DNA of 62,811 bases from the NCBI GenBank assembly GCA_048940445.1, contig JBHLON010000020.1, positions 1-62,811 of the forward strand. The letters are read 5' to 3'. The position numbers and the translations under genes were made by a program. This DNA is from Promethearchaeota archaeon (GTDB lineage: Archaea > Asgardarchaeota > Lokiarchaeia > Sigyniarchaeales > SOKP01). Shown here piece by piece: positions 14,312-16,401 of the stretch. Within the stretch, counting starts at the first letter, position 1. Each line of letters opens with the position of its first letter. The notes beneath the pieces were generated by a model, which worked only from the letters and a program-made list of their open reading frames with translations, was not told where the DNA came from and ran no database searches.

Positions 14312-16401
14312 GTGATAAAATTAGGTACGTCTCATAAAGAAAAGTGGATTATAACTAGTGCTTGGCCTTATGTGAACGCAGATAATTCTTAAGTATAGTA
14401 AGGATTAACGTAATTCCACATTTAGGCAATATAATAGGAAGCACTTTATCAGCAGATGTCTTTGCTCGATTTCTTCGAATGAAGGGAGATGAAGTAGTGT
14501 TTGTATCCGGTTCCGACATGCATGGAACCCCTGTAGCAGTTGAAGCAAAAAAAAAAGGTATTCCTGTAGAAGATTTGGCTCACATAAATCACCAACAAAT
14601 TAAGGAATTACATGAAAAATGGAATATTTCATTTGATAACTATACTCAGACTCATAACCCCACTCATATAGAATTTGTACAGAATTTTTATCTTGATGTT
14701 CAAAAAAATGGATTTATCTCAGAAAAAGAGATTGAATCCCTATATTGCGAAAATGATAAACTATTTCTTCCAGATAGATTTGTAGAAGGAATATGTCCTC
14801 ATTGTGGAGCCGATAAAGCCAGAGGAGACCAATGTGATAACTGCCAAAAATTATTGACTCCACTTGAACTTAAAGAGCCTTACTGTTCGATATGTGGAGA
14901 AAAACCTGTTATTCGGAAAACCAAGCACTGGTATATGGATTTTCCTAAACTCCAGCATGAACTAAAAGTATTTATCGAAAAAAATAAGATCATTCCTTCT
15001 AATGCTAGATTAATGTGTTTAAATAGTATTGGTGAAGGTTTACCTGAAAGAGCTATCACAAGGGATTTAGAATGGGGCATACCAGCTCCGTTTAAAGGTG
15101 CTGAAGGAAAAACGATTTACGTCTGGTTTGAAGCGGTGTTAGGATACGTCTCTGCTGTGAAAGAATGGGCTGAAAAGTTGATAAAACAACCGAAAAAGTT
15201 TGAATATTTTTGGAAAGATCAAAATACTAAATCAGTTTATTTTATTGGAAAAGATAATATTATCTTCCATTTAATTGTATTTCCTGGTCTTTTAATGGGA
15301 TATAATGCTAACAAAAAAGATTCCGATAAATTAGTTCTTCCATATAATGTTTCATCTACAGAATGGTTAATGCATGAAAATGAAAAATTCTCAAAATCAA
15401 GAGGTATCGGGATTTGGGTTGATGAAGCTTTAGAACTTGCACCTTTGGATTACTGGAGATTTACTTTAGTTTATAATCGTCCTGAATCAAGTGATACTTC
15501 ATTTCTATGGTCCGAATTTGAAAACAACATTAAGATCTTAAATGACACTATAGGAAATTTCATCCATAGGACATTAACGTTTATTGATAAACAATTTAAT
15601 AAGATCATTCCTGAAAATCTAGAATATGATGAAGTAGATAAGGGCTTCATTGAAAAAATTAAGATTATAAGTAAAGAGATTGGTGAAAGTTTAAATAATT
15701 TTAACTTACGTAAAGCAATACGAGATATTGTAAGTTTTGGGAAGGAAGGTAATGTTTATTTAAATGAAAAAGCGCCATGGCATTTAATTAAAAAAAATAA
15801 AAAAAAAGCAGGGCATGTATTTAATATTTGTGCTCAAGCTGTGTATGCTTTGGCAATTCTTTTAGGTCCATTTATTCCTGCTACAGCAGATCAAATTCTT
15901 TCATTTTTGAATTGCCCAAAATTGTCAGAGTTATCTTGGGATAGTATAAAAGAAGATGCTATTAAAGCAGGAATTAAAATTAAAACGCCTCAACCAATTT
16001 TTCAGAAATTGGATATTGAAGAAATAAAAAGTAAATTAAATTTAATCAGACAGCAAAAGAAAGAAGGGGGAAAAAGTGAATTGATATCATATGAATATTT
16101 TAAAAAACTAGATATCAGAGTAGCAAAAGTAGAATCTGTAGAGAAAGTTCCAAAAGCAGATAAGTTGTATAACCTAAAAATCGATCTTGGTAATGAGAAA
16201 AGAACATTAGTCGCTGGTCTTGCGAAATATTATAAACCAGAGGAATTGATTAACAAGAAGATTATTGTCTTAACAAATTTAGAACCTAGAAAGTTACGAG
16301 GTATTCAAAGTGAAGGAATGTTGCTGGCTGCAGTAGATAATGGGAAAGTATCAATCTTAATACCTGATAAAGAGATTGAGATTGGAGCAAAAATAGAATA
16401 A
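14312..16401 (+). CDS. metG: Methionyl-tRNA synthetase, predicted spliced CDS join(14312..14381,14414..16401), 685 aa
   Basis: GTG at 14312 after AAGGAG. Exon 1 gives [13 protein letters not shown]; exon 2 gives [18 protein letters not shown], in frame with track ORF 14479..16401 (GSDMHG, Zn knuckle, YVWFEA, GKDNI, KFSKS, C-terminal tRNA-binding domain). Confidence 0.93.
14382..14413 (+). other. 32-nt bulge-helix-bulge (tRNA-type) intron in metG mRNA
   Basis: 9-bp stem UAAUUCUUA/UAAGGAUUA with a 7-nt loop; central helix ACGC/ACGU; bulges AGA and AAU; exon helix AUGUGA/UCCACAU; contains in-frame TAA; removal restores the frame and the HIGH motif context. Confidence 0.8.

Follow-up and report, generated by a model that had tools for sequence, protein, structure and literature searches.

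A putative bulge-helix-bulge intron in the methionyl-tRNA synthetase gene of an Asgard archaeon

Results

The metG gene is split over two frames

The window, by which we mean the whole stretch of 62,811 nucleotides analysed here, is contig C10 of a 3.64 Mb Asgard genome assembly that is 93% complete. It carries a methionyl-tRNA synthetase (MetRS) gene, metG, in which the open reading frame at 14479 matches the MetRS profile from position 34 onward only. The absent N-terminus lies upstream, in two frames with 32 extra bases between them, and the insert includes an in-frame stop codon (Table 1). Excision of the insert joins the parts into a single 685-aa reading frame, counted from GTG 14312, with the junction NAVPHLG. 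A sequence-only reading of this DNA had already described metG as split over two frames by 32 nt with an in-frame TAA, and its coordinates are all correct; it had further placed the insert at the HIGH motif, and the insert does adjoin the motif, but it lies two codons before the His rather than inside. The remainder of the gene is in good order: exon 2 scored 688 bits against PRK00133 in the profile search (cut-off 587), the HIGH-type and KMSKS-type motifs are intact, and exon 1, placed by way of an intronless orthologue, aligns with residues 3-15 of Pyrococcus abyssi MetRS (1rqg). Searches of the 93%-complete assembly with tblastn and a Pfam profile returned no second metG. The other matches were partial and in other open frames, probably those of other class I synthetases, plus one free tRNA-binding domain. 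Most of the nearest relatives of this MetRS carry the label Promethearchaeota, which makes the host a Loki-type Asgard archaeon.

Table 1. Features of the metG locus (positions within the window)
Feature	Position	Strand	Remarks
Shine-Dalgarno-like GGTGA run	14311..14315	+	includes GTG 14312; run and spacing recur in sister species
metG exon 1	14321..14381	+	start probably TTA, alternatively 14312; codes for the first beta strand and the Met-pocket residues WPY
Exon helix, 5' strand	14365..14375	+	pairs with 14415-14427; 10/10 pairs in three species
Central helix, exon strand	14376..14379	+	pairs with 14408-14411
Bulge 1	14380..14382	+	predicted cut after 14381; cut rule per PMC2738675
Predicted BHB intron, 32 nt, phase 1	14382..14413	+	in-frame TAA 14390-14392
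Intron hairpin	14383..14407	+	9-bp stem 14383-14391/14399-14407 (9/9 paired), 7-nt loop 14392-14398
Central helix, intron strand	14408..14411	+	one C-A mismatch in this genome; all 4 bp formed in sister species G017
Bulge 2	14412..14414	+	predicted cut after 14413
metG exon 2	14414..16401	+	intact; includes the HIGH-type and KMSKS-type motifs and the anticodon and C-terminal tRNA-binding domains
RtcB-fold neighbour	16404..17657	-	convergent with metG; divergent protein, not part of the intron

Translation of metG probably starts at TTA 14321. At the matching distance from the GGTGA run relatives carry ATG, TTG, CTG or TTA, with TTA found there in the insert clade and in many others, and seven orthologues lack ATG, GTG and TTG throughout the 75 open-frame bases inspected. 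Given this start, the peptide from unspliced mRNA would have 23 residues instead of the 26 that had been proposed. Across the wider set of loci (L001-L064 and L120-L142) many metG genes appear to start at TTA and others at CTG, ATT, TTT or GTT, at a fixed distance from the Shine-Dalgarno-like run, which suggests permissive initiation in the family. A promoter scan gave results at chance level.

Directly upstream of metG, at 13053-14231 (+), is a gene whose product joins a vWA domain to two RING/PHD-like zinc fingers. The protein encoded downstream at 16404-17657 has no Pfam match; its predicted fold (pLDDT 91) matches RtcB structures only, with E values of 1e-7 to 3e-5 at about 10% identity, and it has invariant Cys and His residues. 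The gene is conserved across the order, in 31 of 41 genomes, in some of them in two copies, and adjoins metG at 18 of the 20 loci examined. As most of these loci are insert-free, the two genes were neighbours before the intron arrived, and their adjacency is no evidence of a module; we rejected the idea of a dedicated metG-ligase module on the ground of this synteny.

The insert can fold into a bulge-helix-bulge motif

The insert and its flanks can form a bulge-helix-bulge (BHB) structure, as set out in Table 1, and every structural coordinate that had been given for the junction fold was checked and found correct. In the exon helix 14370-14375 pairs with 14415-14421 around one bulged C, with four further base pairs between 14365-14368 and 14424-14427. 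The central helix has three of its four pairs here and in species G019, and all four in G017. Frame and residue spacing are restored by twelve deletion registers, only one of which has a BHB: applying the bulge cut rule, as the sequence-only reading did, removes exactly 14382-14413 and restores the MetRS frame. Among 200,000 shuffles of the insert, a central helix of at least three pairs together with a 9/9 stem arose once at the predicted register and 23 times at any of 12 nearby registers. The unconstrained minimum-energy fold consists of the exon helix and the intron stem without the central helix, and the BHB form lies 1.4 kcal/mol above this predicted minimum.

Group I and group II self-splicing introns need a ribozyme core of hundreds of bases; such a core is absent from this insert of 32 nt, for which Rfam gave no relevant match. 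A mobile multicopy element was also considered and rejected, as the best match elsewhere in the genome was 24/32 and shuffled sequences reach 23-25/32. The same genome-wide match search found no source of the intron.

Excision at the predicted sites would give the synthetase its usual length at this point. The spacing from PY to PH is exactly four residues in 62/62 insert-free orthologues, the BHB cut restores the same spacing, and the loop length at the junction in P. abyssi 1rqg agrees with all 62. The junction NAIPH is the commonest among these orthologues (29/62), and NAVPH, as here, occurs in four. In the intronless nearest relatives of the intron clade (L003-L006, L008 and L009), exactly the four codons that surround the insertion site encode unusual residues, ASGP, STQP or ASDP, instead of the VNAI-like ones of other orthologues. 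The exon flanks may have entered the intron clade together with the intron; alternatively, intron loss may have altered the site.

The insert is conserved in sister species

A second contig of 493 bases from another run spans 14201-14693 with three differences and no gaps, insert included. A strain variant from a further study differs at one loop base and at 14403, where the change turns a stem G-U pair into A-U. Moreover, metG is interrupted at this site by a 32-nt insert in two other species as well, G017 and G019. Among the three species dS is 0.72-1.17 and dN/dS 0.056-0.095; for exon 2 of the window genome against G017 or G019, dS is 0.99-1.17 and dN/dS 0.06-0.10. Of the alternatives that the sequence-only reading had raised against itself, an assembly error is thus countered by the independent gap-free contig and by the insert in two other species, and a decaying copy beside a second intact metG is countered by strong purifying selection and by the single-copy result above. 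We consider both assembly error and gene decay very unlikely.

From one of the three species to another, the stem arms agree at 15-17 of 18 positions. With synonymous-site identity at 41-54%, the excess in the stem has a binomial p of about 2e-4 per pair of species, the pairs not being independent of one another; the hairpin loop, identical at 2-4 of 7 positions, is near the synonymous-site level. Over the three species 95.7% of cells were paired in the structure of Table 1, against 32-36% when the partners were slid. In G017, which has the perfect central helix, the BHB cut yields the family consensus junction NAIPH. A search of Asgard metG genes for same-position inserts with covarying stems had been suggested as a check; in the three sequences available, we counted three one-sided pair-keeping changes and no two-sided change. 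As far as these alignments go, conservation of the insert follows base pairing, not codons.

A second metG insert one base away

A pattern search found metG inserts in 6 of 135 family genomes, namely the three sister species and three genomes of the genus g15 (G050, G051 and G053; L074-L076). The g15 insert is 31 nt long and its sequence is unrelated to that of the 32-nt insert. Its central helix is perfect in all three genomes, its intron stem is weaker and its exon helix is interrupted beside the bulge; the predicted cut lies one base further 3' than that of the window intron. Cutting at the BHB yields the junction NAIPH. If the cut is moved 1-7 bases upstream, two of the three genomes would read NAKPH, with Lys at a position otherwise occupied in the family by Ile, Thr or Val.

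In a MetRS tree built from exon 2, the two insert groups form separate, well-supported clades and two changes are required. A single clade of all six was rejected by the AU test, both under LG+G (p 0.042) and under a mixture model with long and distant rows dropped (p 0.012). The simple reading of these data is that the 31-nt and 32-nt inserts represent two independent gains, because they differ in position, length and sequence; strictly speaking, one gain followed by many losses could also explain both.

A tighter pattern run on 400 genomes of the phylum returned the same six genomes and no further metG insert. A match in G288 was discarded as a chance hit, as it has neither MetRS similarity nor a BHB. 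These patterns require the usual residues on both sides and an insert of 13-43 nt, so that other inserts may escape them. Three g15 genomes were uninformative, their assemblies being without the metG 5' region, and an earlier, looser phylum-wide pattern was not used since its noise equalled that of its control. Metagenome contigs at JGI gave no match to the interrupted or the joined junction pattern.

Further BHB inserts in protein genes

The sequence-only reading had described the metG insert as a single case. That insert has stood up as real, but three further genes of the genome carry such inserts and metG appears to have been invaded twice. Genome-wide BHB scans are noisy, with 426 and 1861 raw candidates, and we retained those confirmed by intronless or covarying orthologues; the scan misses short and multi-intron cases and those free of in-frame stops. 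A blind scan for BHB inserts that join coding frames placed metG among ten strict candidates. The mevalonate kinase gene (L148; G000 C78, minus-strand position 21337) has a 31-nt BHB insert in its N-terminal motif, present in 5/5 genomes compared (30 nt in one); in its central helix both sides have changed in a compensatory way. In purA (L147; G000 C134, minus-strand position 108339) a 30-nt BHB insert with a stop lies in the GTP-binding loop; it is common to G017 and G019 and absent from G011 and G075. The insert in an AIR-synthase/ThiL-like gene (L145:606-645; G000 C61:8905) is a canonical BHB of 30 nt that includes stops; G017 has it too, and it is missing from G011, G015, G019 and G075. 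It is likely that several protein genes are spliced in this Asgard family. A separate candidate of 31 nt with a perfect central helix, at minus-strand position 7144 of C63 in the same genome, joins frames of 155 and 677 codons.

The genome encodes an archaeal splicing machinery

The genome has two EndA-family genes. The alpha protein has its best alignment with Aeropyrum pernix EndA (3p1z, E 3e-38); it includes the Tyr, His and Lys of the catalytic site and an N-terminal loop matching the CSL. The second, a beta-like paralogue without the catalytic His, looks like a structural subunit by its sequence. A canonical RtcB is also encoded. Asgard archaea have been described as having a heterotetrameric EndA with a CSL-type loop that confers cleavage of relaxed motifs (PMC5829648). 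By analogy with that work, such a specificity would suit central helices with a mismatch, as in this genome and G019. ARAGORN predicted several intron-containing tRNAs in the genome. Its output also includes a tRNA-Leu with a 421-nt intron (G000 C47:86488-87005, minus strand). For a genome that is 93% complete it lists only 21 tRNAs in all, and tRNAs with several introns may have escaped it.

Discussion

We conclude with high confidence that the metG insert is a pre-mRNA intron of the cbf5 (BHB) type, its splicing being deduced from DNA. In the mechanism we propose, the metG transcript would fold locally into exon helix, bulge, 4-bp helix, bulge and intron hairpin; the two-subunit splicing endonuclease of the host would cut after the second base of each bulge and release 14382-14413, and the exon ends would be ligated, presumably by RtcB. 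Full-length MetRS would be made from the spliced mRNA, with translation of the unspliced form ending after about 23 codons. The intron would have entered metG in the ancestor of the three species, all of one genus, and been retained since, as its stem and helices must remain cleavable. We see no evidence of a function beyond being removable.

Other ways of obtaining a working enzyme from the split gene were weighed against splicing. A hairpin-stimulated programmed -1 ribosomal frameshift inside the insert, ahead of the stop, which would give MetRS with 11 extra residues, draws some support from the downstream frame being open over most of the insert in the three species and from a stop lying at the same codon. 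Yet the 32-nt insert needs a -1 shift and the 31-nt g15 insert a +1 shift, and these opposite requirements argue against recoding. The six junctions share no slippery heptamer, the shift would add 10-11 species-variable residues to a loop whose length is fixed in the orthologues and in 1rqg, and base pairing is conserved rather than codons, all of which leaves frameshifting highly improbable. An enzyme that is split or truncated, with translation restarting inside the insert at a near-cognate codon and the upstream peptide complementing it or being dispensable, strikes us as even harder to credit. Non-standard metG start codons do appear common in the family, and the g15 downstream frame opens with ATG, but the insert has no ribosome-binding run and the g1 group no ATG. 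The first strand of MetRS is the core of its Rossmann fold, and a restart would lose this first strand of the catalytic fold and leave the conserved central helix and bulge geometry unexplained.

In a translational bypass of the T4 gene 60 type, peptidyl-tRNA would hop to a matching codon 32 nt downstream; in this genome the Asn codon at 14374-14376 indeed has an identical codon at that distance, and hopping between the two would leave the junction at its normal length. In T4 gene 60 the stop adjoins the take-off codon, unlike here, and the identical take-off and landing pair is absent from the other five insert-bearing genomes, so bypass has a negligible chance of being correct. Frameshifting, restart and bypass all fail to account for the conserved base pairing. 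We give equally little credence to a pseudogene or assembly error with a working MetRS elsewhere. The assembly is 93% complete, which leaves some room for another copy, but neither tblastn nor HMM searches found one, the independent contig is gap-free, three species share the insert, and at roughly one synonymous substitution per site dN/dS is still under 0.1 and the catalytic motifs are intact.

A broader proposal goes beyond the intron itself: that tRNA-type mRNA splicing is routine in the family, that the metG intron acts as a control point, that the site before HIGH is an insertion hot spot and that the RtcB-fold neighbour participates. We regard this combination as unlikely. Its regulatory half is weakened because the intron is so rare in the family and the neighbour is syntenic with metG in genomes without an intron, and a regulatory role of the metG intron has no direct support. 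If true, it would provide a prokaryotic forerunner of regulated splicing of the XBP1/HAC1 type and tie MetRS output to EndA and ligase activity. The XBP1/HAC1 intron is cut by IRE1 at two stem-loops, joined by tRNA ligase and stress-regulated. Like the proposed metG intron, it is a short, structured, frameshifting intron handled by a protein endonuclease and a tRNA ligase; it differs in relying on IRE1 and not EndA, on stem-loops and not a BHB, and in being regulated by stress.

In the literature searched, splicing within an archaeal coding region is confirmed for cbf5 only, beside the Haloferax 5' UTR case. An obligatory intron in the sole MetRS would mean that a core enzyme of translation depends on EndA and RtcB to be made at all, in a host from the archaeal group closest to eukaryotes. 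Two gains one base apart, along with the other inserts, would point to ongoing, spliceosome-free intron gain in protein genes, and offer a testable case for the origin of short introns and the reason for their location at catalytic motifs. There is a practical side too, since gene callers truncate such genes, and Asgard annotations and marker-gene sets would miss their N-terminal motifs.

Splicing of cbf5 was shown by cDNA, and introns in other archaeal protein genes were only predicted (PMC2738675). A later report described a BHB intron in the 5' UTR of Haloferax volcanii HVO_1309 and called cbf5 the only other mRNA case (PMC7714728), and another counted at least two archaeal genes with such introns (PMC10485636). 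The sequence-only reading knew of none in an aminoacyl-tRNA synthetase or an Asgard archaeon; we likewise found no report of either in the literature searched, which covered few subscription journals. The cbf5 intron of Desulfurococcales and Sulfolobales is the closest parallel, being likewise short, coding, at a catalytic motif and in phase 1, with a BHB that is often relaxed, a cut that falls between bulge residues two and three and hosts that have a hetero-oligomeric EndA (PMC2738675; PMC10485636). It has, however, one ancestral gain with losses where metG seems to have had two recent independent gains one base apart, and its splicing is known from cDNA, that of metG predicted from DNA. Unlike cbf5, metG encodes an aminoacyl-tRNA synthetase, and its host is an Asgard archaeon with several such inserts in its genome. 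HVO_1309 has, as proposed for metG, an mRNA cut by EndA through a BHB, but there the intron is in the 5' UTR, the annotated frame is unbroken and the host is euryarchaeal (PMC7714728). The introns of Asgard tRNA genes, described in a preprint without mention of mRNA (bioRxiv 10.64898/2026.10.13.758758), resemble the metG intron in their BHB, similar size and repeated recent gains in Asgard lineages; they differ in being confined to tRNA genes, and the intron-rich families are Jordiarchaeia and Atabeyarchaeia. Set against these known systems, what is new here is the Asgard lineage, the essential translation enzyme, the recurrent gain at one site and the multi-gene pattern.
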